From the NCBI GenBank assembly GCA_003971905.1, contig RSEE01000020.1, forward strand, positions 124,001 to 188,000: a DNA stretch of 64,000 bases, read 5' to 3'. Source of the DNA: Moniliella sp. 'wahieum'. Taxonomy: Eukaryota. The notes beneath the pieces are model-generated. The model saw only the letters and a program-made list of their open reading frames with translations. It ran no database searches and was not told the origin of the DNA. Positions 5,088 to 39,209 of this stretch are shown here, one piece after another. The position numbers were made by a program, and so were the translations under genes. Numbering within the stretch: position 1 is the first letter of the stretch; every line of letters starts with the position of its first letter.

Positions 5088-5980
5088 CTACGGCAGGTGA
5101 ATGTTGCATGGGTAGTCCGTGCCGCGTTGGAGGTCAAAAACGCGATGCTTCGAGGCCTTTTCGGCCGAGATGCGCAGGCTGGGTTGGGCTCGAGAAGTTG
5201 ACCGACAAGGTCCCGGAAACAAACGTCGTAGGTCATGTACTTTGCTTCGTTCTGATGATGGTACTGGTACCGAGAAAGTGGGGTCGATGAGATCGGTTTG
5301 GTGGTGCGCACAGTGCCATCGGGGAAGAAGAGCTGCTGACGCTTGTCGGTGGCAAGGTTGGCCAGCAGGCTGTTGGGCATCACACCCAGCGCGCTTTGCA
5401 TCTGCGCCAAGAGCGGGGTGTCGCTGGCCTTCAAGGCGTGCTTCTGTGCTTTGTACTGGTTGTACGCCTCCTGCGTCCGCCAGACACCACACGCATGCGG
5501 TCCAAATGGAAGCTTGCCCGCCATCAGCTCCAGCATCACACCCCAGCTGCCCACATGTCGAGGGGGGCCGACCAGGCGTGGGTGCCAAGGAGCGCTCGGG
5601 GGGAAGATAGGCCTTGGGAAGCGCACTCGGTTTGGTGCTGGGGCGAATGCGGATGTTACCCGCACCAGTCATGGGGACCATTGGCGAGAGAAGAACGGAA
5701 CCACCTCGCCGTTCTTGGAGGGATTGGGGATGGGAACAGCGGTGGTGCTGTCGAACCGAATGTGTTCTGCGGTCAGATTGCCATGGACGAAGCCCTGGTC
5801 GTGGAGGGAGGCCAGAAAGAGGAGGCGTTGCTTCATGATGGCCTGGATGTGCTTAGTGACACATGATGCTGTTCGCCCACCCCAGACATTGTCTCATGCT
5901 TTCAACCTCCATTTGTGGCGGCAGCCTCTCTCTCAAGAGATGAGTGAGTTGTTTTGGGGTGAATTGATACCTATGATCTG
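5088..5980 (-). CDS. CMGC (CLK/LAMMER-like) kinase-fold protein, probable pseudokinase; frameshifted, 5' end undefined
   Basis: Stitched frames read HIQAIMKQRLLFLASLHDQGFVHGNLTAEHIRF…YLPPE…LELMAGKLPF…FRDLVGQLLEPNPSLRISAEKASKHRVF, matching subdomains VIa-XI. Confidence 0.7.
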
Positions 5981-7974: not shown

Positions 7975-8027
7975 TTTAGACGTAGCGTTCCCCCTGTCCC
8001 AGCCTTAAGCTCTGTCAATGATATGGA
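7975..8027 (+). repeat. Dispersed ~53-bp repeat, copy 1 (possible transposon terminus)
   Basis: TTTAGACGTAGCGTTCCCCCTGTCCCAGCCTTAAGCTCTGTCAATGATATGGA matches the reverse complement of ~56647-56699 with about 4 mismatches, and partly matches 54753-54780 and 8364-8379. Confidence 0.8.
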
Positions 8028-9201
8028 TTCAAAGAGAGAAGAGAGACGGCGTCGAAAAGGAGAGGTTGAAGTGACGTACGACAAAGAGTACGGTCGCGGG
8101 GGAGGGCGGGCGTTGTTAAGGTGGATCGATCGTCGATATCCGTCAATAACCGCGGCGGGTATTATAACCGTGCCTTCTCGCGCTCTGTCGATGGATATCT
8201 GCGCTTTTTGGAAACGAATATGGTGGGGAGACCAACGGTCTGTGTTGTGGCCTCTGCTGACGGCACTACATGTGACCTGCGGCCCCTACTTGGATCGGCG
8301 CAAAATGCGGCAGCAAACGCCAGATGTGATGGATGAGATCTGAGAGAGCCGGGTAGGCGAAGAAGCGTTTCCCCTGTCCTTGCCCAGTAGGAGATACAAT
8401 ACGTCTGCAACCGAGGATAGGATCGATAGGCACTGTGGGTATGCATGTGACAAGTGTGTTGTGACACATGTCAGTCACACTCGAAGGTTGATGCATGATG
8501 ATGCATGATGATGTGCGGAGATTGGGTGGAGCTTTCGACAGGCACTTGCCCTCGGCCCAACCCAACTCGTCTGGGCCACTGACTCATTAGACGCCACACG
8601 CCACTGCTGCTGAGTACCGAGTACTATAGCTATAGTATACTGAGTACGAGTGTCCCACGTGGATCGTCTAACGTACTCTAACGTACAGGCGCGGCAAATA
8701 CGTCACAAACGTTAAATTAAGGGCCACAGTAGAATGGATCGTCAACATCGTTTCGTCATCAAGAGAATCCATTTGCATTATCGATTGTCCATCGTCGAAG
8801 ACATGTCCATCATCGCGCTGCGTCTCCCTCCTGGCCGAGACCAACACTTGCGGATCTCAGTTGCTGCGCTGCAAGACTCCCTCCGTATGATAGGGACCGC
8901 GGTACCTGTAGGAAGCGCACGGCGCAGTGCCACCCACTTTTTGTATGCGATCGCAAGATGAATGATGGTGAATTCACCATCAAGAGGACCTTTACCGGTT
9001 ACCAGCTTCAAGCTTCACTGGCTTTTCACAACTTCACCGGTCACAGACTTGCGCTGTTTGCACTGTTGTGCGCGCACAAAGCCCACAACCTTTTGCTCCA
9101 GTTGTGCTCCGGGGTGACGTCGAAAGGGCCAGGAAGGAAGCCCACACAGGGCACACCAAAAGAATGGGATTAGATCGATTATAGATCGTTTCGAGGTTGC
9201 C

Positions 9202-9232
9202 TGAAGCTTGAAGCTTGAAGCTTGAAGCTTGA
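9202..9232. repeat. (TGAAGCT)4 tandem heptamer
   Basis: Seen directly; member of the intergenic TGA+palindrome repeat family. Confidence 0.9.
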
Positions 9233-9891
9233 TGCTTTTGCTGGTTGAACGTTGAGAAGATGGAATATGGAAGGAGGGAACCGGGAATGTGGACTGTGGA
9301 ATGTTGCAAGGTGGGTTCGGCCTCTCAGATCTCAGACTGAGCTTCATGGTCCAGTCTACCAAACAGGTGTTGTGGCAGGGTGACGCAGGTGACGCCCGGT
9401 GACTGTGGCCCAAAACACCGTGATCCAGTGTTACATCTTGCCTGTCTTTCTGCCCAGGTTGAACGGTTGAGGTTGAGGTTGAGCGCTGAGCTCCAGCGCT
9501 GATCCTGTGCTAAGCCCCACACTCAACAGAGATCTGTGGGATTTGAGGCGAGTCACTAGTCACATGTCACAGTGACTCGCGAGTCACGCGTGATTAACTC
9601 GATTAACAGGATGAACGTGAACTAGGAGCTGAGCGACAGTAGGTTGCTATGTGAACAACTAACTTTTGCATACATCCCCTCTCTCACCCTGCGTACTACG
9701 TCCACAAACCTCGGTAGAATCGCAACTGCGGGGGAGTGGTGCGTGGCCATATTACAGTCAACGTTCAACCTGACTTATACCCTGCTCGATCTTATCCCTT
9801 CAGACTGAGGCGCTGAGGCGCTGATCGTCCTCCTCCCCGAGGCCTCGTGTTATGCCTCAGGCTGAGGCCTGCCTCAGGTGAGGGATCAGCC

Positions 9892-9923
9892 ACTAGTCAA
9901 CTAGTCAACTAGTCAACTAGTCA
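9892..9923. repeat. (ACTAGTCA)4 tandem octamer
   Basis: Seen directly. Confidence 0.9.
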
Positions 9924-10341
9924 AGTGGCGTCAGTTACTGCTGACTAAGTAGTCACGAGGAAGTGGTAGGCACTAGTCATAGTCATCGATCATCCTCAGC
10001 GCTCAACGTTCTACTGGCAAAGAAGTCCGCCGGTACAATGAATCGCATAAAGGTCCTCTGAGCTTCATCGTTCGGTTCTTTCCAATTCTCGATCTTATCC
10101 AACAAGCATATAACGGCCTGACACACCGCATGGGAGGAGCATGCTGTCGCAGGAATCGTATCGCGATGCTTCTGTAGGTCCACCGAGTAGAACGATTTAT
10201 AGCTGACACTCTCAGCGAGAGTAAACAGCCGGACCCCCTCCACCTTTCCCCCTTCCCCTCTACCGTTCCCTTCTCGACCGTGAATCGTACCCAGGCTGGA
10301 CCTGGCGTGGCTGGACCACTCTCTCATACGGCTGGACCGAC

Positions 10342-11848
10342 ATGTTCTTCTTCCATCTCTTGCTTTCCGTGGCCCTGGTGGCCAATGCTCTCCCTCTTCC
10401 CCCTTTTGCGGCGCCTGGAGCGTCGCGGACCCCACCTCTGCTGAGCAGTCGTCACCACCCCACCACCACCCCAACACCTCTCACTCCAACTCGTCTATTT
10501 CCCACTCGTATGCTTCCCACTCGTCTTCCTCCCATTCCTCTGCCTCCCACCATTCCTCTACCTCCCACACCCATTGGGCACCTTCCCATGCATCCTCGCT
10601 GCCGGATGGTGAAGTGGACGTGGGGTTCAATTTGACATTGGTCACACAGCGTGCGGTGGAGCTTTCGACGCAGAGCTGGGAGTTGGGCAGCACGTCCCAG
10701 TTGTTGCTCGAGATCTATTCTCCCCAGCATTGCATTTATGGCGACAAAGCCCTCAATGGCACCCAGCTGCCGACGATGCGTCCCTCCACCCCCGCCCTGG
10801 CCTACGCCAAGGAAGTCGTACACACCAAAACCTCCACCCTCGCGGATGGAAAAGGATCCTCGGGCGACCCGGCATCGTTGGGCGTTGCAGCCACGCTGCT
10901 GGGCGCAAGCACCCCCGTCTACGCTCACGCAGCTCAGCGTCAACTCGCCACTCTTCTGGAAACGATGACGTACCCCTCGGGTGCACTGAGCTCGCGCACC
11001 AACGAAGTGGCCTACTGGGCCGACTGGGTCGTATGTTCCCTCCCTTCCTTACCTCGACCGTATTACCGACGCACGGAACACTGACCGGATGGATGATGAT
11101 ATTCGGATCGCTTGCAATGCATCCAGTACATGGCGCCGCCCTTTTTAGCGTACCAAGCTGCGATCCAAGCCAATGCCTCCTTGCTTCGTACCACACTCGC
11201 TCAACTCTCCTTCTACAGCCAAGCATTGAGTTTGAACGACTCGAGCGCGCCCGCTGCGGTGCAAGGTCTGTGGAAGCACATCAACGGATCCTCTGCCCAG
11301 TCGGTGGGGTTGTGGACGACGGGTCAGGCGTGGGCGTTGAACGGGATGCTGCGGGTGCTGGCCACGATGCGCCATGTTCCCGCCTTGGCCGACTGGAAGG
11401 AAGCTAGGACGCTCTTGACCCAGATCGACGCCATTCTCCACCCGATTGTGACGTGTGTGGCGAGCGAGAAAGGGTGTGGGTTTGTGCAAGACGGACTGTT
11501 GCGGGGTACTTGCGCGGCGGGCCATCGGGCTGGAACGACACTTCCTCCTCTTGGCCGGGCGAGGTGAGTGGGACGGCAGGTGTGGCCAGTGCCTTGTTCC
11601 GCTATGTGGTGCTGGCGCCGTACTGGGGACAGTCGGTGGGATCGTCGTACTTTGATGTGGCAGACACGCTACGGGCCGCTGTGGCGCAGCACGTCAATGC
11701 CACTGGCTATGCGCAGCCGGCCATGAACCCGTACGACTGGACGGACCCCAGCACGGTGGACGCCAGCCCCGAGGGGCAGGTGTTTGTGGGCTTGATGGGC
11801 GCAGCGTACCGGGACTGTGTGGCAAAGCAGGTGTGTGCTGCGGCGTGA
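10342..11848 (+). CDS. Secreted six-hairpin glycosidase, GH105/GH88-like; intron 11031-11126; frameshifted
   Basis: Signal peptide MFFFHLLLSVALVANA. Motifs SWELG, GSSGDPASLGVA, YWADWV|YMAPPFLAY, GLWKHI, WTTGQAWALNGMLRV, EVSGTA and SPEGQVFV. Confidence 0.75.
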
Positions 11849-12305
11849 TGAGGGCGGCCATGGAGGATACGACGAGAGAAGTGGAGGGGGCATATGCAAT
11901 GGGATGCATGTGGGGAAGGACGAGGTCTGTAGGGGATAAGCGTGTGGGGCTGTGTGAGCAGCACAATGGAGGGCAGAGGCGCTGGTACAAGGCAGCGCCG
12001 GTCATGTGACCCAGTGGGTAGGCCGATGGTGTGCGGTGGCGTGCTGGGGGAGCAGAGCTTTTGAAAGTTGAGGCCCGGCGGAAGCTCCGCCTCAGCTCTG
12101 CGGCTGCGCTGCTGAGCGGCTGAGCGCGCTGAGCTCCACCGCTGGCTGCCAGCGATAGCCTGTGAGTGACATGTGACGGGGGCATGTGCCAGCGCCATCA
12201 CACACCCCGTTGTGCCCCACCTGGCCGACCTGATCTCCTCCTGCGCACATGTCACCGTGACACCCACCACACGCGTCTGCGCTGCCCCCCACCCCCACCC
12301 CGCAC

Positions 12306-13768
12306 ATGAAGCTCGTCGCGCTCCTCGTTGGTGGGCGCGACCACTCCCCCGCCGCTCCCATCGGCGCGGCCGACGCAGAACCCAAGGCACGCCGCCGCAC
12401 CCTCTCCTTCTCGCGCATCCGCCGCAAGCCACGCCCCTCCCCGACCCCAGACGCCCCGCGACCACCGCCAGCACCCCGCCCCCCATCCCCATCCCTCCTC
12501 CACCCAGCATCCCCTCTCGGCCAGCACCTGCTGCGCCCCTCCCGCGCCCTGGGGCTGTGATCCTGCCGCTTTCATCCCCCACGTCAGAGCTTCCCCCCAC
12601 CCTACCGAGCGCCTCCCCGCCAATTCCTTTGCCCCGCCCCGCCCCCTCCAGCCCCCACCACTTACCCATGGTTCCACCCCCGTCTCCGCCGCGCTTGCCG
12701 CGCCCACGCCATCGGTCCTCTGCCCCTCCGATTCCTTCCTCCGTCTTCCCGCAGGCGAGAGAGATTCCTCCAGCCCGCGCCCCGCGTCCTTTTACTCCGC
12801 TGTATCCTTGCCCCTTGCTACCCCGCCCTTACCTGCTGGTCCACCGACACCTACACGAACCCCTACTACTCCTCCCATCTCTCCGCCATCATCCGCGCCC
12901 GCCCCCAAAAACCTCGCCAAGACCCACTTGCTACCCGCCTGATGCACCTAACGCTCGCCTTTGGAGATAACCTGTTGACCGACGAAGAGTACCGCTCGCT
13001 TCGTACCAGTGTCCTGTCTGCCGCCGTCGACGCTGAGACGGGGACAGCCCATCACGACAATCCCGCCACCCACGACCCCACACTCTCTCCCCCCCACGAT
13101 CCGCCCATGAACGGGCGTCTGCAACGCTCTGGTTCCCTTGCCTCTCACAGCTCTCACACCTCGGCCCGCACGGCCCTGTCGCGCCTTACTCCGCCCCGGC
13201 GCACCGTGCAGGCCAAACGTTCCCTCCCGCGTCTCAGTTCGGGCGCCAGCCTCCTTCTGCCTCTACCGCCGGCAGCAGCAGCAGTGCCAAGGCGAAAGAG
13301 GATGTGCGGGACCGGGTGGCGCAGGAGCGCAAGCGCCGAATCTTGCATGGCCTCCCGCCCAGTGGCGATGGGCGCTACCCGCGCTTGGCCCACGACGTCC
13401 CCCCGCGCTCCCAGGCCGAGTTGCGCGCCGAAGTGCAGGTGCTGGAGCGGGAACAGAAGGCCGTGCTGGGCATCATTCTGCAGTTGCGAGGCCAACAGGC
13501 TGTTGTCGCTGGCGCGCCGGTCGACCGAACCGAGCCAGACGAGCACGTCGAGCAAGCCAACGACGCCGACCTGGATCGCGCCCGCCTCACCAGCCTCCCG
13601 CCGCGCCGCAGTTTTCTCAGTCTGCGTCGACCCAGCGTGGCGGTGGAACGGCAGGTGTCGCTGGCTGACCCGTTGGCCGAGGCGGTGGCGGCGCGGTACG
13701 AGGAGCGGGTGGCGGGGCTGCAGAGCGCCCTGAGGAGCGCGCAACTGCGCGAGAAGGCGATGCGCTAG
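12306..13768 (+). CDS. Hypothetical Pro-rich protein with C-terminal coiled coil (frameshifted)
   Basis: Chain of overlapping + strand ORFs (12306, 12328, 12942, 13304) ending in a heptad-like segment YEERVAGLQSALRSAQLREKAMR. Confidence 0.5.
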
Positions 13769-15378
13769 TGCTTCCGTAATGGGGTTGTGGACATGCATAG
13801 CATCTCACAGTGTGGTAGTCATGTTGGCCTATATATGTATGTACTACGACAAGGGGCCATTCAAAAGCAGCTGGCGGGGCCCGAGTTGTTGGAGATCAGG
13901 ACCATCACCTTGCTCGCAGTACTTTGATCGGTACTTGGAGCTCAGTGTGCTCGGTCTGAGAGGCTCAGGGCGCTCAGGACTCTTGTGGACTGTGGACTGG
14001 GAACTGACTGGTGCATGATGAGGACAGTGAGGTCGGGTGAGTCGTCGTGGGGTGGCGCTGTGGTATAGGGCACGGCAAGTGATTATACTAGTGATAGATG
14101 TTTTAGTGGTTAGTGTGATGCAAGTGATTTGTGATTTCACATGTGATTCGCGTCACGTCCTCTATTCAAGAGCGCGGTGCGATGAGGTCGATGAGGTCGA
14201 TGAGAAAGGATGAGCGGCAAGAGGGACGACGGATGGGTTGATGGGGGCCAAAAGAGCAAGCAAAGATCTAAGGCTGCCAAAACGCTATCGTGTGGGCAGG
14301 TTAATTAACAAGTGACGGAGCAGCAGCAGGGAGCACAGCTCGCCGCTATCCCCATAGTATCACGCTTTCAAGCGGGAGAGAGATCTTTGGGGCTCGACGG
14401 AATCCCATTCCCAATCTCAATATCCTGCTCTCTCACCATCAGTGCCTCTCGGTGATGGTCGGGTTCTACTATACACTACTACTAGTCCTCATCGGCGTAA
14501 GTAATAGGCGCGCGATGGGAAATTAGTCGTCCGTCAAAGGGAATACGTGGCTAGTCCAGTTTTGCGACACAGCTTTTGTGCCTTTTGCTCGCCCACCGGC
14601 GTGTCTCCACCTTCGACCCGACGGCCCACGAGGACTACCCCGGCGTCTGGATATCGACACCCAGCACAAAGCCCCCCCTCGCTCAGCATTACGGCGTCCA
14701 TGACCGTACTAAGCCCTATACATATTAGCACCATATTCACATTCACATTCATGGTGATGGAGAAGGTGGGGAAATCCTGGTTTGGGTATACACTTTTTGA
14801 CTCCAGTGGTATATAGGTAAGGCCTATGAAGGGATGAAGTGTGTGCAACGCCACACACAACCTCTGTGTATCGTACAGTCCCCTTTTGGTCTTTTTTTGC
14901 TGGCACGCTTCTCTTTCCGCCTGCAACTGGTCTCACGTAGGCAGGGCTGAACCCGTCATACGCCATACCGCTTGATGCTGCAGCAGAAGCCGGCATTATT
15001 GGCTCTCTCCTTCCAACGTGGCTAAGTAGCGGTCCTACCACTTTTCAACGCAAGGGAGAGGTCGAGTCGCGTGCGAAAAGGCCCTAGTGATTCATGTGTT
15101 TAGTAATTGAGCGAAACACTGAGGCACCGTGCGCTCCGCGATCATCGATGCAACCATATCCAATACTGCCTTCATGTCATACCCTCCGTACTAGCGCCTC
15201 CTATCTGCGTTGGCTTGGTTGCCCGGCCATACGGCCTGCTGCAGGCTTCATTGATCTGGTAAAAAAAATGGCTGGACAAAATATGGTATCGCGGGATCGT
15301 GGGGTAAAAGGGGAGGAAAAGATGACCCTCATCAACCTCATCCCTGAGGGGGGGGAGGCAGGGGTCTCGTCGAAGGGT

Positions 15379-17114
15379 TTATTTACTGAGCCCCACCCTA
15401 AGAAGGCAAATCAAGGCGGACAGGCATTTTGACCAAGAAATTCCATCGGCACGGCTTGTTGGTTGCCCTCGGCGACCCAGGAAGAAACCAGGGTACCAAA
15501 CGTACCTCCGGACGTGGCCGACGAGGGCAGGGGTCCAGGAGGAGCGGGTGGGTGAGCGGCCACAATGTCCGTCTCCCCTTCGAACCGGAGCGAGGTGCAG
15601 GACTTGGAGGGGGCACGCATTGCGTCTTTCTCCTTTTCCTCGCCGGGTAGGCCGAGAGTGGTTGGATGGTCTGGGACGAGGGGGAGGAAGGCACGCGCGG
15701 AGAGAAGGGGAAAAGTGCGAGTCGGGGGAAAAGGGATTGATCTCGAGACGGATCTCGCTTAGATCGGTCCCTTGCTTGGTCCAGCTCTTGTCCCCAGAAG
15801 TAATCGGATCGGCTGGCGCAACCCGAGTGAACGAGTCGGGAGATTCGAGGTCGAGGTCGAGGTCGGGGTGGACGTTGGTGTGAGAGAGACCACGGGGCGT
15901 GCGCGGTTCGTACTTCTCTCCGTGCGTCACCCTCAAGTCGAGCGGGGGCGGGACCTTGGCGTGCAGGAGAAACGGGTTGCGGTGCAGCACCGAGGACGTG
16001 CGGCTGCCCACATCGCTCTTGGTTGGTTCTCGCTGCAGGTCCGCATGCGCCGACCAAGTGAACTCGTCATGGATCCGGACCCGCCTGCGCGACGTGTCGT
16101 CGCGGTACAGCTCGAGGCACATCAGGACCAGCGCGAGATGGAGCGCGAGCGCAGTGTAGTACAATCCAAATCCAGCCCCTACATGAGCTTTCAAGCCGGT
16201 TTCCGATTGCGTCGAGATCATGATGGGCATCGGTAACGCTCCGGCGAGTGTATCCAGCATCACAGTTGATGGCAACCACACTTCCTGATTCGCTTGGTTA
16301 AACCCCCGCACATAGCGTCCAACCTTGATGCGCGTCACCACGGTCAAGGCCAACTCGGCGGCAAGCAGGAGCGGGAGGAGGAGGCAGTGGACTTGCTGGT
16401 ACTTGATCGACACTTTCTCCATCGTGGGATTGGAGCCGGGCGAGAAGCGAGACGTGGGGTGGCGCTGCGCAATGTAAAACAGAGCGAGGGGCATACTTGT
16501 GCCCGCGATCAGGACAACGAGCAAACCAAGACGACCAGCTGCAGCGATGGGATCGCACCCCATCCTGTGGGGAGCGCGGCGGTGTCGAGCGGCGTGGTGA
16601 ACAAGAGGGTAGCCAGCGTCGCGTTTTTCTCTGCCGCCTCCAGTTCGGGAGGAGAGGCGGTGAGATAGGCGGTTGAATTGACCCAGGGGATGCGCTCAAA
16701 GAACTGCGGGGACAGATGCGGGTGGAGCGAGGAACGCTGGCACAGATTGTGGGAGTTGAGGGTGGGCTGGGCGTAGCAGGTGCCCAACAGCCCATAGCTC
16801 AAGCGCAGGGGGCTCTGCCACGACGCTGGGTTGGGTGTAATTTCGCGGACGTAGTCGTAGAAGAGAGTGTCATTGATCGAACCTGAGCGCTTCCTGTTGG
16901 AGCGGCGGCTGATGCGGTCGTTGGAGACGGAGCCCCTGGTGGTGTCAAAGAGCTCTTGCGTTAGCCTCATGAGGTTGGCCGTGTTCTCCTTGCTGTGGCG
17001 TGGGGCAGGGAGGAGGTCGAGCATGGTCGCTGAGCTTTGGGACATGGGGGCCGGGCTGCAGAGCGGGAAGAGGAGGAAGGCGAGGAGGGCGAGGTGGAGC
17101 AGGGCGGCGACCAT
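15379..17114 (-). CDS. SUR7/PalI-like multi-pass membrane protein with disordered tail (3' end approximate)
   Basis: N-terminal TM MVAALLHLALLAFLLFPLCSP, claudin-like motif SYGLLGTC..C in the first loop, three more TM segments ending GAGFGLYYTALALHLALVL. Confidence 0.6.
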
Positions 17115-22145: not shown

Positions 22146-22498
22146 AGCAGACTCGAACCGAGAGACCTAGTATCCCACTCGTATCCCTCGCCACTGCTGC
22201 CGACCCCGTGCGGGCAGTATCGGTACAAACGGGGTATGGCCTGGTCCTTCGCACAGGCCAGGTTGGCTGGGAGATAAAAGGTCGGTTTAATTTAGTATCG
22301 CTAGCTTTTTGATTGCATTGCCCCAGCTGGAGATGATGACGTCGCTGTGACGTTGATGGCCAGACTTCAAGCTTCTATGGCGTGCCACACTTGGCCGGCC
22401 CCATATGCCGCTATCCATATCATTAACCGTTGACCATCATGATGCTCAGACGAGAGGCATTCTTCATCCATTCCCCCACGCCCACCCCGCCCCCTGGG

Positions 22499-23724
22499 CT
22501 ACGCCGTCCAGACAAACAGCGCGATGCGTCCCACGAGCCCGACAGCGCGTGTCCGTCCCGCTGACAGCCAGGCTGGATACCCTGCTCTGGTGGCCCACCA
22601 GGGTCGCGGTTCGTTCAGCCGCAATGGTCCCACAACAGGATCTCGGGCCCATCGTAGCCCACGGCCAACAGCCGTCCGGAGCGAGCAAAGCTAGGTCGTC
22701 ACGGGCTGCGTCAGCATCGAGTTGCTGTACGCTGCCAGGCCGGTCGGCGCGCAGGTCAAACAACTTGCACGTCGCGTCTTCCGAGCCGGTGGCCAACGCA
22801 TTCCCGTCGGGAAACATGCTGATCGCATTGATGTCCGAGTCGTGGGCATGGAAGCTCTGGACGGACCCTTGGTGGGCACACGCATGTCCCATACCTTGGC
22901 ACCCCGTCGCACGCACCCGATACAAATAAGCTGGATGCACCGGACTCAGGTCCAAGGCCATCACCTCGGCCGAGTGCTCAAAGTACTCGGCTTTAGTTTG
23001 GCCGGTGGCCAGGTCCCACAGCCGGCAGCTGTGGTCGCCGGACGACGTTACCATCTCTGCCTCGGAAAGAAAGCGGCAGTGGGAGACAAATGCATCGTGG
23101 CCCACCAGCTGTTGCACGGGTTGCGACGCGTACGCCATGGTCATCGCGATCTCTTCGGGCGTGGCGTGCGCATCCATGGCAGGCAAGCGGAACAGATGAC
23201 ACGCATTCTCCAACCCGCACGTGGCCACCATCTGACCCGAGGGCGCGTAGGCACAGTCCATCACCCACTTGAACGGGAGCGGCAAGGCATGACCTTGTTG
23301 TTGGTGTAGGCGTCCCAAATGATCATCTTGCCATCTTGGCTCACCGATACGAGATGGCGCGAATCGGAGGCCCAGTTGACAGCATAAATCTTGGACAAGT
23401 GGCCATTCAGTGTTCGACGCACGCGCAGCTGCGGCCTCGCGCCAAGGGCGGCACTCCCTCCACCCCCACGCTCGCAACGTGGTATCGCCAAGGCTTCCTT
23501 TTGGGCGGCCACCCGCGCCTTGAGCCCTTCGGCTGCGCTGCGGGCGGAAAGAATGCGCTGACGGAGCGCCTCGGCCTGTTGCTGCTGCAGTGGACCGAGG
23601 GAAGCAGGGGCAATCTGCGACACACTTCCGGCGCTTCGACCTTGGGGCGCCGCCACGTGGGCCGAGTGGGGAGAAGAGGAGTGAGGGGTTGGCAGGCTGA
23701 CGGAGGGGTGTCATGGGTAGCCAT
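22499..23724 (-). CDS. Heterotrimeric G-protein beta subunit (WD40), divergent; frameshifted
   Basis: N-terminal helix [11 protein letters not shown], then [99 protein letters not shown]. Confidence 0.9.
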
Positions 23725-24658
23725 CTTGCAGATCTCTAGATGGATGCCCAGTGGTGGTCGTGGCCAATGTTCCGGTACGTGGGAATGGCGAGTGGATATA
23801 TCATACAGGGTAGAACGAACGACGCGCATCTACCACGATCTGCCAGCCCATGTTGTGGTGCAGTATGGAAACGAGGCACTGGCCCCGTCCCACCGTCCTC
23901 CCCCACGAAAGGACACAAACGGCCAGGGTCTTGGTGCCCAGCCCGCGCCGCACGGGGGGAGCCAGTGGAGCATTGCCCGTCAGCCATTGCTCAGCTTTCG
24001 CGTCAGATCTGAGTCATTGTCACCGGTAGTCACGTGGCTGGGTTAGGAGCGATGCATGATGAGTACTGAGTACTGAGTTCTTGCCTGCGTCCAAGCTTGA
24101 CTGGCATCAAACTCAGCTGGGCGACCAAAGCCATAACAACTCGCAGTGCCTGTTATGTGCCCGCGCCTTTTTGCCGCTGGCCGAGGTGTTTCTATTGTTG
24201 GTGAGGTACAAAGAGAACTGTGCTCGGGAAGTATGCAGTGCCACGATCCTATCCCCAAGGGGATCCTGTTCTTGCCCTGGTCGGTCCCTATGCAGAACCG
24301 AACCAAGTCGGTGCGGGGTGTGTACGTGAATTTGCACAGTGGCGTCGCCCGCTCAGAGGCGGGAACCCAGTCTAGTAGTAGAGAGTGAGGAGTACGGAGA
24401 TGATTGAAGGCGTCGCCAACTGCGACCAAGAAGGGGGTAGGATGTTACGCCATGGATCCCCTCGGTCGGGTACTCGAGCGGATTCACGGGCGGTGGGGGG
24501 CATGCCGCAGGCTGGCAAGACTCATGCCGATAGTTTTGATAGCACCAAGGGTGCAAAGGCAGAAGGGTAAAGGCATGCTCTGATGCGAACGCCACGCGGA
24601 GGAGGCGGGCACGCCAAAGCCGAGCTGTGCTAGTCTAGTGTAGGGTGTCATGGCCCCA

Positions 24659-24944
24659 TTACGCCGCCGGACTTGGCTTGGCCGGAGTTGACTCGACCGG
24701 CGGCCAGCCCAGTTTCCTGCCGATGAACTCGCGCCAGAATTTCGGAGGGTCATTGGCGTCAAAGGCGGCTTGGCGAGCAGCCTCGTTGATTTCTTCGTTG
24801 CGAGCCGCGTCGTCGGCGGTGATGCCGCGGCGGGCTGCTCCTTCTCCAACGTGTCCTGGTACGCCAAGACGGGGGGATGGCGATGAAGGAGGAGAAAAGG
24901 GTGAAGCCGAGAACGACGGAGATGGGCGTGGTCCAGCGGGCCAT
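24659..24944 (-). CDS. Small hypothetical single-TM protein (frameshifted)
   Basis: MARWTTPISVVLGFTLFSSFIAIPP followed, after frame changes, by AARNEEINEAARQAAFDANDPPKFWREFIGRKLGW. Confidence 0.45.
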
Positions 24945-25634
24945 CGTGCTGGACGGGACAAGGCGCGGGTGTGGCAGACGGCTGGCAAGACTGTGCAGTT
25001 CCTGCTGTTGCCGCTCCCCTTCCGCCTAGCCCTGGCCAGAAGGCAGAACAGAACACCGGGCGCGGGCGGAGCGGAACGGTGCTGCAGCGGAATGCATTCT
25101 CCGTTGCACCGGCTGTCGTTCGAGCCAGGTGTCGATCCAGGGCTGGCGGGTGAGTTAATGGTGATGCAGCTGTGGCAAACGGCGGGTGGTGTGACAGTGA
25201 CACGTCAGTGCCAGTGACATGTGACATTGGGCGTGGGATACCTGACCGTCACGCGTCGGACGAGGAGCGCACTGCCAGCGTCGGCCAGCACGTCCCCACT
25301 GGGCAACGGGGGTGCTGTGGGGTGCTGCGTGGTGCTGAGGGCGTGGAAGGCGCGCCTGCTGCAAGGGACACGCCTGGCCGCTGCATGTGTGCTGGCCTCC
25401 CCGTCACCGGCCTGCACACTGCGCCTGTGCCCGCCGGGCGCGTCGTGGCTTTCGACGGCATTCCTCAGGCGAGCGCAGGACCGGTGAGCGTCACCCGGGC
25501 GCACCAGCCTGACCCAATTGTGCCTGCAGCGAGAGCGCCAGAGCGGTGCATGGCAGCTTCCAGCGGGGGGCAAGCCAGCGCACCGCAGCCCACGCAGCGC
25601 GCCCGACGGCGTTGGCGGCCAGCGACATCTTGGC

Positions 25635-25644
25635 TTTATTAAAA
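25635..25644 (+). promoter_or_regulatory. TATA-like element upstream of galE
   Basis: TTTATTAAAA island in GC-rich DNA about 60 nt before the ATG at 25700. Confidence 0.4.
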
Positions 25645-25699
25645 CGCGCTCCTCCCCGCCCGCGCCTTCTGGCCCGCTCCCACCACCATCCCCCACGCC

Positions 25700-26695
25700 A
25701 TGACTGTTATTGTTTGCGGAGGCGCCGGCTACATTGGCTCCCACGCCGTCGACCAGCTCATCTCGGCTGGCTACGACGTGGCCGTGGTCGACAACCTCGT
25801 CACTGGCCATCGCGCCGCGGTGCACCCCAAGGCCCGCTTTTACGAGGGCGACCTGCGCGACCGCGCGTTTTTGGACAAGGTGTTTGCCCAGGAGAAGGAC
25901 ACGCAGGGCGTGATGCACTTTGCTGCGTTTAGCGTGGTCCCTCAGAGCATGAAGGACCCTCTTCTCTACTTTAACAACAACACTGCGGCATGGTGACGCT
26001 GCTGGAGGCCATGAACGCGGCCAATGTCAAGTTCATTGTCTTTAGCTCCACCGCCGCCACCTACGGCGAGCCGAAGAGCATCCCCATCCTTGAAACCGAC
26101 CCTCAGATCCCTACCAACCCCTACGGCGAGTCGAAGCTGCAAATGGAAAAGACGATGCGGTGGTGCGACGAGGCATACGGAACCAAGTTTGTGTCGTTGC
26201 GCTACTTTAATGTGGCGGGTGCCAAGAAGATGGATCGATTGGCGAGGACCACAACCCAGAGACGCACTTGATTCCCATTGTGCTCCAAGTCGCTTCGGCG
26301 AGCGGGAGCGGATGCAGGTGTTTGGCGACGACTACCCTACCCGCGATGGCACCAACATTCGTGATTACATCCACGTTGTCGACCTTGTTGATGCTCACAT
26401 TCTTGCCCTCCAGTACCTCATCAAGGGGGGCCAGTCGGAGGCGTTCAACTTGGGCTCGGCCACTGGGTTCTCCAACTACGAAATGTTGGCTGCTGCGGGA
26501 GGTCACTGGCCACCCATCCCCGCCACTGTCGGTCCCCGCCGGCCAGGCGACCCGTCGACGTTGATTGCTTCGTCGGACAAGGCTAAGAAGATTCTGGGAT
26601 GGAAGCCCAAGTACGATGATGTCAAGGCCATCATCAAGACGGCCTGGACCTGGGAACAGACCCATCCCAAAGGCTACGATGACAAGAAGAACTGA
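25700..26695 (+). CDS. galE: UDP-glucose 4-epimerase, bacterial (Firmicutes/Lactobacillales-like) type; intronless; several 1-nt frameshifts
   Basis: [64 protein letters not shown] (YxxxK), [41 protein letters not shown]. Confidence 0.95.
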
Positions 26696-27454
26696 ACCCC
26701 CGGCCTCGCTGGGCCTTATATCTAGGACCCCCCAAAATGGCCGGCGTTGGAAGTCTTCTTTTACCTTTTCTACTATTTGAATTCATGTGCGAAAGCGTTT
26801 CGATCCGATTGCTCTTATGTCGAAGTGAACGATAATGGACATTCGTGCCACTCCCCTACTAATCGTCGAAGTGGTGAATGTAGAAACTCGGAAGAGAACG
26901 AGTGAGATCAATTGCCGAGCGACTGCGTCCTGGTGCATTTCTAGCGGCTTGTCTCTTGAAGCATTCGCGAGTTGGTTGAACGCTGTCAATCTGTCACATG
27001 GCATGTCACATGTCAACAGGCATCCTGCCCCTGGCCACTGCCCGTTTTTACAGCAACCATACGGTGGTGTCTGATGGTGGCTTGGGTTCAGTGGCATCCA
27101 GCACAACTCAATGATCTCGTTGCCATCGTAAAAGGAAACCGTTTTCCTCGTTACTTCTGTCCCCCCCTACCTTTTCCTCCCACAACAGGCACAGGTAATG
27201 CGTAATGTGCGATGAATGGATTTGGAGTAAGGTTTTGGCCATTGTCAATTGGATGCTGTGAGGCCTGAGGCCTGAGGTAGCCCACATCAAAAAAGCTTGT
27301 CGTAGTTGTAAGAATAGGAAGACCACATATCATACTAGTACTTAGGGGTAGCCATCCGAGTCAAACGTATAGACTCGCACGGAGCTGGGAGACGCTCGAT
27401 ATACGCAGCAGTCAGGAATCCTGAATCCGATGGGTGAAGACGTGGACAAGGAAG

Positions 27455-28633
27455 TTACGCCTTGTAGAAGCTCTCACTAACGTGGGGAATTAGTATCTGT
27501 TCACCAAAAAAGCAAGGGAGGGATGGGGGAACGGCACGTACAGTTCTTCCACGTCCTCCTTGGATCCGAGGAAAATACCGGTGCGGGAGTGAATGCCATC
27601 TGGCTGGATGTCCAGTACCCTCATTGTACCCGTCGTGGCCTTGCCACCCGCCTGAAACCAACCAAGTCAGTGACAATCCCCATGATGCAAAAAAACAAAA
27701 ACAAAGACACAGAGCGCAGAGGGGCACGACGTACCTGCTCGACCAAAAGCGACATGGGGAAGGCTTCATAGAGAATCCGCAGCTTGCCCGTCTTGCTCTT
27801 GCTATCGGCGGGGTATCCGAAAATGCCGCCATAGAGCAAGGTACGGTGCACGTCGGCAACCATGGAGCCAATGTAGCGTGCCGAGTAAGGCTTGCGGCCA
27901 TCCTTGGGGTACTTGACGTGCTCCAGGTACTTGAGCGTGGGCTGGTCATAGTAGGCAGAGTTTCCCTCGTTGATAGAGTAAATCTTGCCCCGCGAAGGGA
28001 TTTGAATGTTGGGGTGGGTGAGGATGAACTCGCCCAAGGCATTGTCCAACGTGAATCCATTGACACCCTTGCCTGTTGTCAGCACCAAATTGGCCGAGGA
28101 GCCGTACATGCAGTAGCCTGCAGCGACCATCTCGTTGCCGGGCGCAGGACATCGGAGAGGGAGCCCTCGCTGTTGGGCTTGACCGCATAGATGCCAAAGA
28201 TGGTGCCAATGTTGACACCAGCGTCAATGTTGGAACTGCCGTCAAGGGGGTCGAACACGACACAGTACCGCCCCACCGTGGCCTTGGGTGAGTCTTTGAC
28301 AAAGATGGCCTGCTCCAGCTCTTCCGACACGAGCACCGCAGTCTTGCCACTGGCACGGAGTGCGTTGATCATAATCTCGTTGCTGAGCACGTCCAATTTC
28401 TTCTGGTCCTCCCCCTGCACATTCTCAGCGCCGGCAAGACCAACCAGGTTGATCAAGCTGGCCTTGCGCACATTGGACTCGATAAACTTGCACGTGGTTT
28501 GGAGCGCGGTGAGGAGGATGGTCAGATCGCCCGATACATCCTCGTTGGTCATCCGCGCCTCAATTTCCGACTGGAGCACCCAGCGTGTGAGGGTGATGAG
28601 GTCGGTCTCGGGGGGGAAGTAGTCGGCGGTCAT
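27455..28633 (-). CDS. FBP1: Fructose-1,6-bisphosphatase class I; introns 27652-27734 and 27477-27541
   Basis: [63 protein letters not shown]; splicing yields the C-terminus ELESFYKA*. Confidence 0.96.
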
Positions 28634-30537
28634 GACAGGCAGGCAGAAGAAGGCAAGCAGAGGGGGAAGAGGGGAGGATGGGGAGAGAGGAAGAAGGGGA
28701 AAGACGGACCAAGCGACCCGGAAGCGTCGGCTCTTTTAAAGCACCGCCGCTGCCCACCTGCCACCATACCGGCAACTCAAGCCATTCACGCCCAGGCCAC
28801 CGCGGGAGTGTGTCGCCACCAGCCGCCTTGTTTGTGGCCCGCTCAGCGCTCAACGCGGCTTGCAGCTTGAAGCATGACTCGCTGGCCGCAGAAGCGGGGA
28901 AACGCGGGGTGTGGGGAAGGCACAGCGCCAGTATCAGCCTCTCGGCTCCATGCGGTCCGATCGGGGGGGGACAGTGGCGCCGGGCGGGCACCCGAGGTGC
29001 TTGCGGCAGTGGTGAGGAGCGCTGAGCCGACGCGGTGCCCGAGCGGGGGTCACACTGGCCCCCTGCCTGCGGCCCTGGCGACGCAGGGTGCTGTCCAAGG
29101 CGCGGCGCGTGCATGCGGAGCTGGATCCTGGGGAGCAGCCGGGGGGCAGCACTGGGGCAGCCCGAAGGGACGCCCCCCCTGCAGCTGGCAGGCCCCCAGC
29201 CTCCCCTGCATGGCCTGCGTGGCCACGGCATGGCCACTGCCTGGCCACTGCATACCCCGGCACCAGGCGCGTGCCTGGTGCATCCGGGACGCTCCGGGCG
29301 CCGCACCCGCGTACCGCCCTCCCGCCCTCCCGCCCCATCGCACTGGCCGTGCACATCCAATGTCCACGCTCCAAGCTTCAAGCTAGCTTCAAGCACCCGC
29401 CGCCCGCCACCCGCCGCCCGCCACCCGCCGCCCGCCACCCGCCGCCCGAGACACATACCGCCGCAGGAAGCACAGCGCGGCATGCTGCGGAACCTGCTTG
29501 ATTCATGATTAATCATCAAAATCATCCGCCAGCATCTCCTGCCCTGGGCAATGTGCTTTTGGCGCCGCACCCAGACCTCCAGCTGCTGAGCCTCTGCAGC
29601 TTACATGGCACATATCCGGATGGGCAAACATCGACAAGGATCTGTTCGGCAGCAGGCCGATGCGCAAGCCACTCTTGACCCTGCCTCGTCGCGCACCTGC
29701 GTCCATATCGCGAAAGCGGGAAAGCTTATTCGAGCGAGACGAAGAGCCAAAGTTAGTTGTCAGGACGACTGCAATCCACAACGGGTTTTGTTTGGGAGGC
29801 AAAAAATAATAGGGGAAGAAAAGGTGTGCTCGCGTACTTAGGGATAGAGACAGCCATTGGTTCCGAGGATATTGTGTTGCATCCACGTTTCCCTCGTTCT
29901 TGTCCATGAATCAGTTGCCGAGATGAGGTTTGCCGTGTGCGAGATGGGGAAGGTGGGGAGAGACGGATGGGCCATCAGAAGCAATCGCGTTCGCTTGAGT
30001 GCGGGTACACCAACCTATCATTAGTCGGCAAAAGGGGCCCGCTTCACTTTTTTGAGTGCAAGGGACTCAAGTCGTGGCATAGTCTAGTGATGCTACTAAC
30101 TCGAGGAATTCGAGCAAATACCGATACATAATGTCCACCACATGGACTATACCTCTCGGTTCCGATGCAAACTATCATTAATTAAGGAATGACTCATTTG
30201 GATGTTCCAGAACAAGGCAAAACGCCCCCCCACCCCGCCTCTTACCGACAGGCCTTGTATTGCCACTGCCTCATCCCGGGGTATCGAGCATGGCATATGG
30301 CATCGAAGGGTGGGATGCAATGGCAGTTGAGTTTGCGTGATGCGTAGATGATTGGATAACAGGGAGGGACAAGCACAGGGAAGAATGCGGGGGGAGAGGG
30401 GTGGGGGGTGAAGGTTGAACTGTGGGCACTGTTTAAAGCAAGAAGTGCAATGGGCAATGCAGTGTGGGACAGCCACCCGCGAGCTGCGGTCCAACATCGT
30501 GAACGATAAGAAGGAGAGGGACAAACGAGGGAACACA

Positions 30538-33830: not shown

Positions 33831-34997
33831 ATGGCGTCTCCTCGGCCTGCCCCGCCGCCGGGCTTGCCGCCCATGATCGACATTGGCTCCAACTTGCTGG
33901 ACTCTATGTTCCAGGGCGTTTACAACAGCAAGCAGGCTCACGAGCCTGACCTCCTCGATGTGCTCCACCGAGCCCGCAAGGCCGGTGTGGTCCAACAGCT
34001 TGTCACCGCTGGCTCCCTCGACGAGGCCAACCAGGCCCTGACCCTCGTCGCTGCTCATGGTACGTGTGTGGCCTTTGTTCGCTGTGCCCCTGCCCCCCCA
34101 AGATTTCCTCGACGCGGCGTACTGACTCCCCCGTGTTCTTGCAGATGACCTATTCTGTACCCCGGCTGCCATCCGACACGGGCCCGTGAGATGATGCAAT
34201 TCCCCAGGGTGCAGCCGCCTATGTCGGGCAGCTGCGGTCCTTGTTGGACCTCCATTCGTCCCGCGCGTCTAGCACGGGAAAGATTGTGGCGGTAGGGGAA
34301 TGTGGGCTGGACTATGACCGTCTTCACTTTAGTTCGGCCGAGGAGCAGAAGCAGGCATTTGAAGCGCAGTTGATCTTGGCCGAGCAAACCCGTCTTCCTC
34401 TCTTTCTCCATTCCCGCGCCGCCCATACCGACCTGGTCGCGCTTCTGCGCCCACACTTGGAAGCACTTCAGCAAGCCATAGCGGCCCCGTTGGCGTGGTG
34501 CATTCCTTTACGGGTACGGTGGAGGAGATGGAGGAATTGGTCGGACTCGGACTGTACATTGGCTTGAACGGCTGCAGTCTCAAGACGGAAGAAAACCTAA
34601 AGGTGGCACGTGCGGTCCCCCTGGACCGGCTCATGCTCGAAACCGATGCACCATGGTGCGAGCTACGACCTACCCATGCCTCCGCCACAGTGCTGGCTCC
34701 CTTCAAAGCCAAGTTTGCCGCCCCTGCCAAGCCGCAGGGCAAAAAGGGCAAAGCGACTACACCTGCCTCGCTTGCTGCGGACGCGGCGCCAAACGAAGAG
34801 GAAACGGCCATGTACACTGCTTACTTTCCCCGCAGGTCAAGAAAGAAAAGTGGGTGAGCGGGAGCAGTGTGAAGAGCCGGAACGAGCCCTCGGCCATTGG
34901 GCAGGTGGCCCTCGTCGTGGCCGGGCTAAAGGGGGTGCCGGTGGAGGAAGTGGCGCAACAAGCAACCGCAAACACAAGACGTATGTTTGGCCTGTAA
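33831..34997 (+). CDS. TatD-family nuclease (TATDN1-like); intron 34060-34144
   Basis: [80 protein letters not shown]. Confidence 0.93.
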
Positions 34998-35845: not shown

Positions 35846-37192
35846 TTACGAGCGCCACTGAAGAAAAAGCAAAACGGTCAGTTGCTCCTGCGGTGGCAAA
35901 TAAGATTGGAACGTACAGAGATGAGTGGGGCATCCGTCCGGAAGCGCTGGGTGGTGGTCGACTTGCTCAGCGGCGTTTCTTGTCCCATCCTGCGAGCCAG
36001 GAGCCCTGCATGCGCAATCATGATCCCATTGTCGATGCAGAACCGCTCATCAGTAGCAAAGACGCTCCCTCCTCGCTCCGCGGCCATAGTGCCCATCATT
36101 TGTTGCAAACGGGCGTTGGAGCCGACCCCCAACGATTAGGACCTCTTTGGAGCCAACATGGGCCATGGCTCGCTCAGTAATCTCAACCAGCATCGCAAAC
36201 ACGGTCTCTTGCAGTGTAAAGCACAAGTCAGCGGGTGTAATCACATCCTCCTCCTTCGATGCAAGGACCGCCTCTTGCGTGGCGGAAGGCAGAGACGATT
36301 GGGCGTGACCGACGTGACGGCCATCTCCACTGACGCCTGTTCCGTTGGCTAGCGACCCCCTTCGCCCGCCGGTACACGGGCTTGGTTGGGTCGAAAGCGG
36401 GCGTCACGCGTGTAACTTTCGACAGCGGCCAGAATTCCGCCAAGGGCCAAGTCCATCCCTTTGGTAGTGTAGGGAAGAGAGAGAAAACGCTTCCCGCTAC
36501 GTGCCTCCAGCTCGATGTTTTGACCCGGACTGGGGTCGTTGGAGAGACCAATGACGCGCGCAAACCGGTCCAGGCAATTGCCCACGGCAATGTCGAGCGT
36601 TTCGCCAAAAATACGATACCGCTGAGCCGAATAGGCAATCACTTGGGTGTTGCCCCCGCTGACGTAGAGCACAACAGGATTGCTGGCGCCGGTGATGGTC
36701 CGTCCCATTTCAATGTGGCCCACACAATGGTTCACCCCAATGAGCGGCTTGTTGTACAGAAGAGAAAGAGTGCGGGCAATAAAGGAGACAGCCTGCAATG
36801 GTGCGCCCATACCAGGACCTGGAGGCACGGCGGAGGAGCCAGTCAGTTGGGCAAGTCGGGCGAAGTGGGAATGGGGAGGGGGACGTACCCTTAGTAAATG
36901 CAATGCACTCCACGCTTTCCAGGCCATCGGGAAGGCCGGACGAGTTGACTGCCTCCTGAACGACCTGTAGGATCCAAGCCTTGTGGTGCTTGGCTGTATC
37001 GCCCGGTTGGAAGCCGGTGCCCGGTGGGGTGACATAGGTGTGGCGCACGTTGGACAGGACGTCGACCGAGCCGTCGGGGTTGTGGCGGACAATACCGGCG
37101 CCCAGCTTGTTGGCCGAACCCTCGAGCCCGAGAGCAATGGGGTGGGACAAGGTAGGGAGCGGGTCGACGGCGGCGGCGGCAGTAGCAGCCAT
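35846..37192 (-). CDS. KAE1: tRNA N6-adenosine threonylcarbamoyltransferase (KEOPS subunit Kae1/OSGEP); introns 36819-36888 and 35858-35916
   Basis: [89 protein letters not shown]. Confidence 0.96.
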
Positions 37193-37535
37193 GGCGCGGC
37201 GAGACGGGGGGGGGGGGGGGTAGATCCTCCCAGCAGATGGATGCAGTGAGGAGGATTGATCAGTGGTCTTTTTTGCTTTTGAATTGGCGGAATGGCGGAG
37301 AAGCGGAATGGCGGCGGGGCGGATCGGGAGTGGCGCACCAGGCAGTCGGTGGCGCTTGCGAGCTAACGCGCTAACGCGAGGCAGGCCAGGGCAGGTTAGG
37401 CCTACCTTAGGCCTTGAGGCAGCCCAGCGACACGCCGCGCGCGGACCACAAAGAGGAGCGTGACGCGTGACGGTCGATGAGCGCGCCCCAGACGGCTTTG
37501 GTGTCCCCGTCCGTATCCCCACCACCACCGTCAAC
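37193..37535. promoter_or_regulatory. Probable bidirectional promoter between head-to-head KAE1 and CCT7
   Basis: Divergent start codons about 340 nt apart. Confidence 0.5.
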
Positions 37536-39209
37536 ATGGCCGGCCGCTTGGGTATGATGCAACCCCCTGTCTTTGTCCTCCGGGAGGGCACCGATACGTC
37601 CCAAGGAACAGGCCAGCTGCTGAGCAACATTGGTGCGTGCCAACCGTTGTTGATTGCGTCGCCTCAACCCTTGGCCCCCGCGGGATGGACAAGCTTATCA
37701 TTGACAGCCGGGGCAAAAGCACCATCTCCAACGACGGCGCGACGATTCTCAAGCTGCTCGAGATTGTTCATCCTGCTGCGCGTACCCTGGTTGATATTGC
37801 CCGGGCTCAAGATGCCGAGGTCGGAGACGGGACGACGTCTGTTGTGCTCCTGGCCGGTGAGATGCTCAAGGAAGCCCGCCCCTTTGTTGAGGATGGCGTT
37901 TCGCCCCACATCATTATCCGTGCCTTCCGCACTGCGGCTCAACTGGCTGTCGAGCGCGTCAAGCAACTGTCCGTCGCTATTGACCGCAACGATCCCGAAG
38001 GCTTCCGCGCCTGCTGATGAAATGCGCCGGTACGGCCATGAGCTCCAAGTTGATTGTCTCACAGCGCGCTTTCTTTAGCAACATGGTTGTCGACGCCGTT
38101 CAGGCACTGGACCAGGATGATCTAGACGAGAACCTGATTGGAGTCAAAAAGGTGCCCGGCGGTGGGATGCAAGATTCCGTTTTGGTCAAGGGCGTAGCGT
38201 TTAAGAAGACGTTTGCCTATGCTGGCTTTGAGCAACAGCCAAACGGTTCGCCAACCCCAATTCTCAATCTCAATGTGGAGCTTGAGTTGAAGGCAGAGAA
38301 GGACAATGCTGAGGTTCGAATCAATGAGGTGAGCGAGTACCAAGCTATCGTCGATGCCGAGTGGAACATTATCTATGCCAAACTCGAAGCGATCGTCAAA
38401 TCGGGGGCACAGGTGGTCTTGTCCAAGTTGCCCATTGGCGATCTGGCTACACAGTACTTTGCCGACCGCAACATCTTTTGTGCGGGCCGTGTCGCAGCCG
38501 ATGACATGCAACGCGTGATTCAAGCTGTCGGGGGTTCGGTGCAGTCACCGTATCTGACCTACGCCCGGAGCACCTCGGTACTTGCGAGCTCTTCGAGGAG
38601 CGCCAGATCGGCTCGGAGCGATTCAATCTTTTCGAAGGCTGTCATTCTGCCAAAACCTGCACCTTATCCTCCGTGGCGGGGCTGAGCATTCATTGCTGAG
38701 GTGGCGCTCCCTCCACGATGCCATCATGATCGTCAAGCGTGCGATCAAGAATGGTTTCGATCGTTGCCGGCGGCGGCGCTGTGGAGATGGAACTGTCCAA
38801 GTATCTGCGTGATTACGCACGGACCATCCAGGGGAAGCAGCAGCTAATCATTGGTGCCTTTGCCAAGGCGCTCGAAGTGATTCCGCGGCAAATTGCGGAC
38901 AATGCCGGGCTGGATGCTACGGATTTTTGAATCAGCTGAGGATGCGGCATGCTCAAGGCCATGCTTGGGATGGGATTGATATGGATACCGACGGGGTGGC
39001 TACAACTTGGAAAAGTTTGTCTGGGAACCATCGCTGGTCAAGATCAACGCAATTCTTCAGCTGCAGAAGCTGCCACTCTCATCCTTTCCGTCGATGAGAC
39101 GATCAAGAACCAGCAATCCGAGCGACCCAACCCAGGACCCCCAGCGCCGCCTGGAACTGCGCAGCGCGCGTTGCGCGGGGCCGGTCGCCGAACCGGTGGG
39201 CGACGGTAA
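37536..39209 (+). CDS. CCT7: T-complex protein 1 subunit eta (chaperonin CCT); frameshifted
   Basis: [90 protein letters not shown]. Confidence 0.96.

Follow-up and report, generated by a model that had tools for sequence, protein, structure and literature searches.

The window, by which we mean the whole stretch of 64,000 nucleotides analysed here, carries a UDP-glucose 4-epimerase gene (galE) that appears to have come from the Lactobacillaceae lineage, or from a close stem of it, into an ancestor of a Ustilaginomycotina-like fungus, and that would since have been ameliorated and kept under purifying selection, the breaks in its reading frame being errors of the assembly. We put the probability of this overall reading at about 0.85. 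It supports, from sequence comparison, the proposal of an earlier note on this DNA, which had seen in the gene an old and ameliorated transfer of a lactic-acid-bacterium-type galE into a fungal chromosome. The gene and its surroundings are as follows.

22467 to 23735, reverse strand: G-protein-beta-like WD40 gene (PF25391), the divergent upstream neighbour of galE
23736 to 25699, no strand: spacer of ~2 kb between the G-beta-like gene and galE, searched for coding signal and with Pfam and tblastx
25637 to 25644, forward strand: candidate core promoter element, an AT-rich TATA-like stretch TATTAAAA lying 56-63 nt before the start codon
25700 to 26695, forward strand: galE coding region (UDP-glucose 4-epimerase), from TIGR01179 matches, identities and trees
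27455 to 28633, reverse strand: FBP1 (fructose-1,6-bisphosphatase), running towards galE, its coding sequence containing two introns and a single frame break, from tblastn with three homologues and Pfam FBPase

Read from the sequence, galE starts with an ATG at 25700 and stops with a TGA at 26693-26695. The region consists of four pieces rather than one open frame (P0001-P0004, at 25700-25987, 25990-26232, 26232-26297 and 26297-26695, respectively), and when it was read through its five breaks by a script that placed an X at each of them, it rendered a collinear product of 333 residues. A profile search placed the four pieces in order on positions 2-98, 102-181, 183-203 and 205-331 of TIGR01179 (the NCBIfam equivalog for GalE; curated cut-off 262.3 bits), with E-values of 4.8e-28, 4.2e-24, 0.008 and 2.4e-44 and scores of 97.9, 85.0, 15.0 and 151.5 bits (a rough sum of ~349); an intact relative, P0005, scored 413.7 bits, above the cut-off. 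Judged by these scores, the match of galE to TIGR01179 is far above chance level. Since the pieces are collinear and contiguous on the profile, there is no space for an intron, and the intronless epimerase of ~330 aa that had been described is indeed a TIGR01179-type GalE of 333 residues at 25700-26695. The GxxGxxG motif, which serves NAD binding in SDR enzymes, is present as GGAGYIGSH (residues 7-15), and the Ser...YxxxK motif is intact, with SSTAATYG from residue 116 and YGESK from residue 142; we take this Ser/Thr and the YxxxK to be the catalytic residues. Enzymes of the GalE family interconvert UDP-glucose and UDP-galactose in an NAD-dependent reaction via a 4-keto intermediate. All GalE motifs quoted in the earlier note were found in the translations of the pieces.

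Identities of the 333-residue read-through, computed over 318-328 aligned columns, were highest with P0005 (92.7%), an intact protein of 334 residues known only from assembled public reads. The GalE proteins of Lentilactobacillus parafarraginis (76.1%) and Lactiplantibacillus herbarum (75.4%) followed, together with 12 entries from Secundilactobacillus, Agrilactobacillus and Lacticaseibacillus among the best 25 rows (72.5-74.3%), Lactobacillaceae GalE thus being the nearest named relatives (72-76%). Lower values were obtained for the N-terminal domain of Z. rouxii Gal10 (45.5%), for domains from a plant (Macadamia; 44.9%) and from a member of the Mucorales (Apophysomyces; 43.3%), and for an E. 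coli-type enzyme from a Bacillus (40.6%). When the C-terminal piece was searched against the database, 44 of the best 120 matches were named to species, 43 of them Lactobacillaceae and the remaining one a partial Enterococcus faecium entry; the others had no name or just the label 'UDP-glucose 4-epimerase' (one of the unnamed being P0005, with 87% identity to this piece), and no named fungal or other named eukaryote protein was found among the best 120 matches to the C-terminal piece. The best prokaryote loci, with one genome per prokaryote species, were likewise from Lactobacillaceae (67-74%), and a metagenome scan with P0005, of which 80 loci were kept, gave a best identity of 71% and neither a closer relative nor a fungal context.

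Comparison with structures and with a subfamily profile gave a similar grouping. P0005 scored 406.6 bits against PDB 2c20, compared to 237.7 for 4lis, 237.2 for 1z45 (GAL10) and 235.1 for 1ek5, of which 4lis presumably represents the native fungal type of UDP-glucose 4-epimerase. The NF007956 profile (cut-off 394 bits), which describes the E. coli/eukaryote-type GalE subfamily and holds native fungal Gal10, was passed by Z. rouxii Gal10 (P0354; 408.1 bits) and failed by P0005 (274.8 bits), and the window galE pieces also stayed under its cut-off (74.4 + 51.6 + 96.1 = 222 bits). Native fungal Gal10/Uge enzymes (NF007956; PDB 1z45, 4lis) thus belong to the same family as the window galE, as both pass TIGR01179, and presumably catalyse the same reaction, but the window protein is only 43-46% identical to them, lies below the NF007956 cut-off and is without a mutarotase domain. 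It is of the same length as the GalE of Lentilactobacillus, Levilactobacillus, Lactiplantibacillus and Secundilactobacillus, is 72-76% identical to them over 324-328 columns and has the NAD-binding and Ser...YxxxK motifs in common with them, but differs from these Lactobacillaceae genes in standing alone in a eukaryotic chromosome outside a gal operon, in its GC3 (0.77, compared to 0.41-0.62), in its long stem branch and in one otherwise invariant Glu that is Gln in both the window galE and P0005. The earlier label of a Lactobacillus/Streptococcus-type GalE is supported in the form of a Gram-positive, Lactobacillaceae type, by the best named matches (72-76%), the clade described below (100/97) and the failure at NF007956.

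Several of the bacterial loci deserve mention in their own right. One locus from a bin labelled Bacteroidaceae (L071) and one from a Lachnospiraceae bin (L068) have almost identical GalE, suggesting mis-binning or recent transfer, and Agrilactobacillus genomes have two galE copies each (L012/L015 and L014/L059). Four loci from alphaproteobacterial MAGs (L036, L038, L040 and L045) carry a Gram-positive-type GalE (47-52% identity) on very long branches, with deviant composition in three.

Phylogenetic analysis was carried out twice. The first tree, made by a quick method, had 112 rows (the read-through, P0005, 80 prokaryote loci, 26 named matches from the 120 of the C-terminal search, three eukaryote domains from the 120 matches of another search, and one E. 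coli-type GalE); it paired the window protein with P0005 at a support of 100 and this pair with Lactobacillaceae GalE at 97, apart from Bacillaceae, Enterococcaceae, Carnobacteriaceae and Clostridia, and separated the E. coli/eukaryote type at 100. The second tree, by a careful maximum-likelihood method, had 54 rows hand-picked to represent each clade, with bacterial rows picked by likeness to P0005 and two native fungal enzymes, neither from Basidiomycota. In this tree, which answers the earlier proposal of an ML tree with bacterial and fungal GalE, the window protein and P0005 group at 100/100, the pair clusters with Lactobacillaceae at 100/97 inside Bacillota and not with the two native fungal enzymes, and the Gram-positive and E. 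coli/eukaryote GalE types split at 100/100. An AU test that placed the pair with all four E. coli/eukaryote-type rows gave a delta lnL of 13.9 (p 0.012), a weak constraint under which the pair simply takes a basal position in the Gram-positive type; a stricter fungal-only constraint was then applied, and a grouping in which the pair joins the two native fungal enzymes was rejected (delta lnL 168.1, p-AU 2.4e-5).

The bacterial clade without the fungal pair receives 65/87 in the 54-row tree, and the pair, on a long stem of 0.38 changes per site, is nested within or sister to Lactobacillaceae. We infer the donor at the level of the family: it may have been the Lactobacillaceae lineage or a close stem of it, and may be an unsampled relative. 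That stem, on which the fungal pair does not fall clearly among the sampled bacteria but beside them, could also be read as a second-hand gain from another eukaryote that had taken galE from Lactobacillaceae, or as an ancient eukaryotic paralogue lost almost everywhere, and the supplement of a survey (PMC11708051) does list Lactobacillaceae-like GalE genes in Moniliella wahieum. However, other named eukaryote proteins are absent among the best 120 matches, and an ancient paralogue would not give a 100/97 clade with Lactobacillaceae nested inside Bacillota; we consider both routes very improbable, and prefer a direct origin in the Lactobacillaceae or in a close stem of that lineage.

The neighbourhood of galE agrees with what had been described for it. 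FBP1 contains two introns (27655-27734 and 27477-27541) and ends on the minus strand with a stop at around 27455, some 760 nt away from that of galE, as was expected of the intron-bearing gene noticed ~760 nt downstream, and the best named relatives of its N-terminal part are from Ustilaginomycotina (Tilletiopsis, Tilletiaria, Kalmanozyma, Sporisorium and Tilletia; 70-76%). Elsewhere in the window there are eukaryotic housekeeping genes (Sad1/UNC, SRAP, Ulp1-type protease, TatD, TsaD/Kae1, CCT, EH-domain, UBA, GH31 and SNF2/chromo). Pfam revealed no GAL1, GAL7 or mutarotase domain among 363 ORFs across the window (138 + 79 + 146), in keeping with the description of galE as a stand-alone gene with no GAL1/GAL7 nearby and no mutarotase fusion. 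The spacer at 23736-25699 has no Pfam match and shows no codon periodicity (GC differs between phases by at most 0.23, against about 0.37 in galE), and a tblastx comparison of 23700-27500 with 80 bacterial loci for remnants of bacterial flanks gave only matches of 23-30 bits outside galE. As for traces of mobile elements, only short repeats at chance level lie around galE, and no tRNA was found in the window. In the first part of the window (1-16800), none of 79 ORFs of at least 95 residues matches Pfam at E 1e-5, and GC is 0.65-0.68 in places; genes that are lineage-specific or of low complexity could account for this, as could coding sequence broken into pieces too small for a Pfam score.

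Base composition and divergence both suggest that galE has long been resident in its host. Its GC3 (0.774) is close to that of FBP1 (0.771), which confirms the GC-rich codons like those of its neighbours, whereas eight bacterial homologues have a GC3 of 0.31-0.62. DNA identity to the nearest bacterial genes, those of Secundilactobacillus, is 67-70% and is confined to 25700-26683. Since GC3 is host-like, bacterial DNA identity is low and bacterial flanks are lacking, the sequence points to a long residence and against fresh bacterial contamination. The earlier view that the transfer is old and ameliorated agrees with this host-like GC3 and DNA identity, with homology that stops at the borders of the ORF and with the existence of a 93%-identical relative.

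A bacterial gene mis-assembled into a fungal contig has to be weighed nonetheless. The linkage of galE to its flanks, from the G-beta-like gene through to FBP1, is that of this one error-prone assembly, and the independent contigs compared (X1 and X2, from two other public sequencing runs of one study, their kind not being on record) do not bridge the junctions. Such a chimera is nevertheless exceedingly unlikely, as the GC3 of galE equals that of its fungal neighbour and lies outside the range of the eight bacterial homologues, the nearest bacteria reach only the above DNA identity with no bacterial flank, nothing closer than 74% (prokaryote genomes) or 71% (metagenome contigs) was found, and the same GC-rich version occurs in the two other runs, with P0005 93% identical. 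We therefore keep to a resident gene of Lactobacillaceae-lineage origin.

As it stands in this assembly, galE is interrupted at five sites, all of them missing bases in short G/C runs or a GC repeat:

25985 to 25989, forward strand: frame break 1, a short G/C run lacking one base; frame change between P0001 and P0002, extra C behind 25985 in an X1 contig
26229 to 26232, forward strand: frame break 2, one base missing at ~26230; frame change between P0002 and P0003, P0005 uninterrupted, outside X1/X2 coverage
26295 to 26299, forward strand: frame break 3, a G run lacking one base at ~26297; frame change between P0003 and P0004, P0005 uninterrupted, outside X1/X2 coverage
26494 to 26513, forward strand: compensated pair of breaks, two bases missing at 26494 and one at 26512, from the X1/X2 contigs

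At the compensated pair the window reads six wrong residues and loses one in comparison with the intact P0005; both X1 and X2 have GC inserted behind 26494 and a further C behind 26512, and with these bases the reading is in frame again and agrees with P0005. The X1/X2 contigs cover only parts of the region (26124-26422 and everything upstream of 25694 lie outside), and within these parts they are about 98% alike to the window, with no more than seven other differing letters in any listed piece. Three of the five breaks are absent from them, and X2 contigs also contain extra bases at three intergenic positions (26976, 27109 and 27150). Breakage of this kind is common to other genes: six more genes of the window have Pfam matches divided between overlapping ORFs that lie in different frames, the profile positions abutting one another:

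22467 to 23735, reverse strand: G-beta-like WD40 gene, PF25391 positions 8-98 and 89-322
27624 to 28735, reverse strand: FBP1, Pfam FBPase positions 2-150 and 148-191
34190 to 34994: TatD, Pfam positions 81-143, 147-213 and 215-253
35881 to 37362: TsaD/Kae1, Pfam positions 56-190, 190-226 and 226-263
37481 to 38682: CCT chaperonin subunit, Pfam positions 3-113 and 121-298
50678 to 52795: GH31 hydrolase, Pfam matches on overlapping ORFs

The FBP1 break lies at 28136-28142, where the tblastn protein alignment is gapless. Because the neighbouring genes are broken in the same manner and other runs restore three of the sites, the five galE breaks are most likely deletion errors of the assembly and not gene decay. 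The assembly of the window as a whole looks rich in single-base deletions, and gene calls on it will be fragmented.

If the breaks were real, galE would be bacterial in origin but a decaying pseudogene in this strain, and the density of breaks (five sites in 1 kb of galE, one in the 1-kb FBP1 coding sequence) as well as the position of those at 26230 and 26297 outside X1/X2 coverage would fit such decay. We judge this improbable, since three of the five breaks are absent from contigs of two other runs that are otherwise about 98% alike, X2 adds bases at intergenic sites too, the six other genes are split likewise, no in-frame stops occur beyond those produced by the shifts, and the repaired protein retains both its invariant residues and a largely synonymous pattern of differences, as described next. 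An assembly artefact in a functional gene is thus the reading that we retain.

The window GalE keeps 60 of the 61 columns that are invariant across 106 bacterial sequences, and 118 of the 121 columns that are at least 95% conserved, two others falling on an X. The sole change at an invariant column, Glu to Gln, is common to the window and P0005 (residue about 82, in VVPQSM; window about 25940-25950). In the repaired frames, the 14 substitution sites between galE and the X1/X2 contigs comprise 12 synonymous third positions, one Ile to Val and one site at a break. The retained invariant residues together with the mostly synonymous differences point to purifying selection on galE as a working gene. 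The shared Gln, at a position that is Glu in 106 of 106 bacterial GalE sequences, fits a single transfer.

Upstream of the ATG, the AT-rich stretch at 25637-25644 is the only AT-rich element in the spacer shared with the G-beta-like gene, and the TATA-like box that had been noticed there is, by its sequence, a candidate. A contig of run X1, a run that also covers galE, skips exactly the 65-nt FBP1 intron at 27477-27541 (GT..AG, minus strand), so that X1 may be RNA-derived, or may come from a relative without this intron.

Our data suggest the following history. A galE gene that arose in the Lactobacillaceae lineage or a close stem would have entered an ancestor of a Ustilaginomycotina-like fungus, and the open reading frame alone would be the bacterial sequence surviving today, now probably solitary between the divergent G-beta-like gene and the convergent FBP1. 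The gene would have taken on the GC-rich codon usage of its host and been retained by purifying selection, with transcription presumably from a host promoter in the spacer that it shares with the G-beta-like gene. The predicted product is an NAD-dependent epimerase of the short-chain dehydrogenase type that would interconvert UDP-glucose and UDP-galactose. Its role may be in the last step of the Leloir pathway and/or in the supply of UDP-galactose for glycoconjugates (wall or secreted glycans), and epimerisation of N-acetylhexosamines is a possible further role. It may replace or supplement a native GAL10, as the earlier note proposed.

Transfer of metabolic genes from bacteria to fungi is a well-known type of event. 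Several reports bear on the present case. A survey of 829 fungal genomes (PMC11708051; mBio 2024) counts 20,093 genes of prokaryotic origin, Firmicutes being the source of 7%, and its supplement lists 158 transfers for Moniliella wahieum, a Ustilaginomycotina yeast. Among these, 'Event1556' comprises two Moniliella wahieum GalE-like genes whose best matches are Lactobacillaceae GalE (59.9% and 61.9%), and the available main text makes no mention of them. These genes are catalogued there as prokaryote-derived and, like the window galE, are of Lactobacillaceae type, but at a lower identity than the 76% of the window protein; the window may represent the same event. Anaerobic gut fungi (10.1101/487215) and floral Wickerhamiella/Starmerella yeasts, in which bacterial genes have been described (PMC5897096), offer parallels in that bacteria-to-fungus transfer there also concerns central sugar metabolism, as far as the available parts of these reports go; in the gut fungi, however, the transferred Leloir genes listed are mutarotase, galactokinase and uridylyltransferase, GalE not being among them, whereas the gene in the window is galE. 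Our literature search yielded no published description of a fungal galE of the Lactobacillus type, and the terms 'epimerase', 'galE' and 'Lactobacillus' were not found in a preprint on HGT in Malassezia.

Because the supplement of PMC11708051 already lists Lactobacillaceae-like GalE genes in Moniliella wahieum, the novelty of our finding is modest; we regard the window galE as a clear yet fairly ordinary bacteria-to-fungus transfer, possibly one already catalogued there. A practical caution follows for annotation, as in so indel-rich an assembly galE would be mistaken for a pseudogene or cut up by spurious introns. A broader reading is that the bacterial GalE took the place of the native Leloir epimerase in a lineage of Ustilaginomycotina yeasts that is little sampled and rich in HGT, possibly in the same event as that behind the Moniliella GalE genes. 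We consider this rather doubtful; if true, it would be a sign of sustained gene flow from plant- or sugar-associated lactic acid bacteria to these yeasts, and a basidiomycete parallel to the Wickerhamiella/Starmerella case. The interest of galE would grow if the native epimerase proved to be lost or the lineage to be a hotspot of lactic-acid-bacterial gene flow, and xenologous replacement in the Leloir pathway could be examined on this gene in a simple way. The gene could also point to a habitat held in common and to a yeast lineage prone to HGT, and appears to be a clean and well-supported example of a central sugar-nucleotide enzyme that passed from lactic acid bacteria to a basidiomycete and stayed functional, with the donor family still identifiable and amelioration complete.
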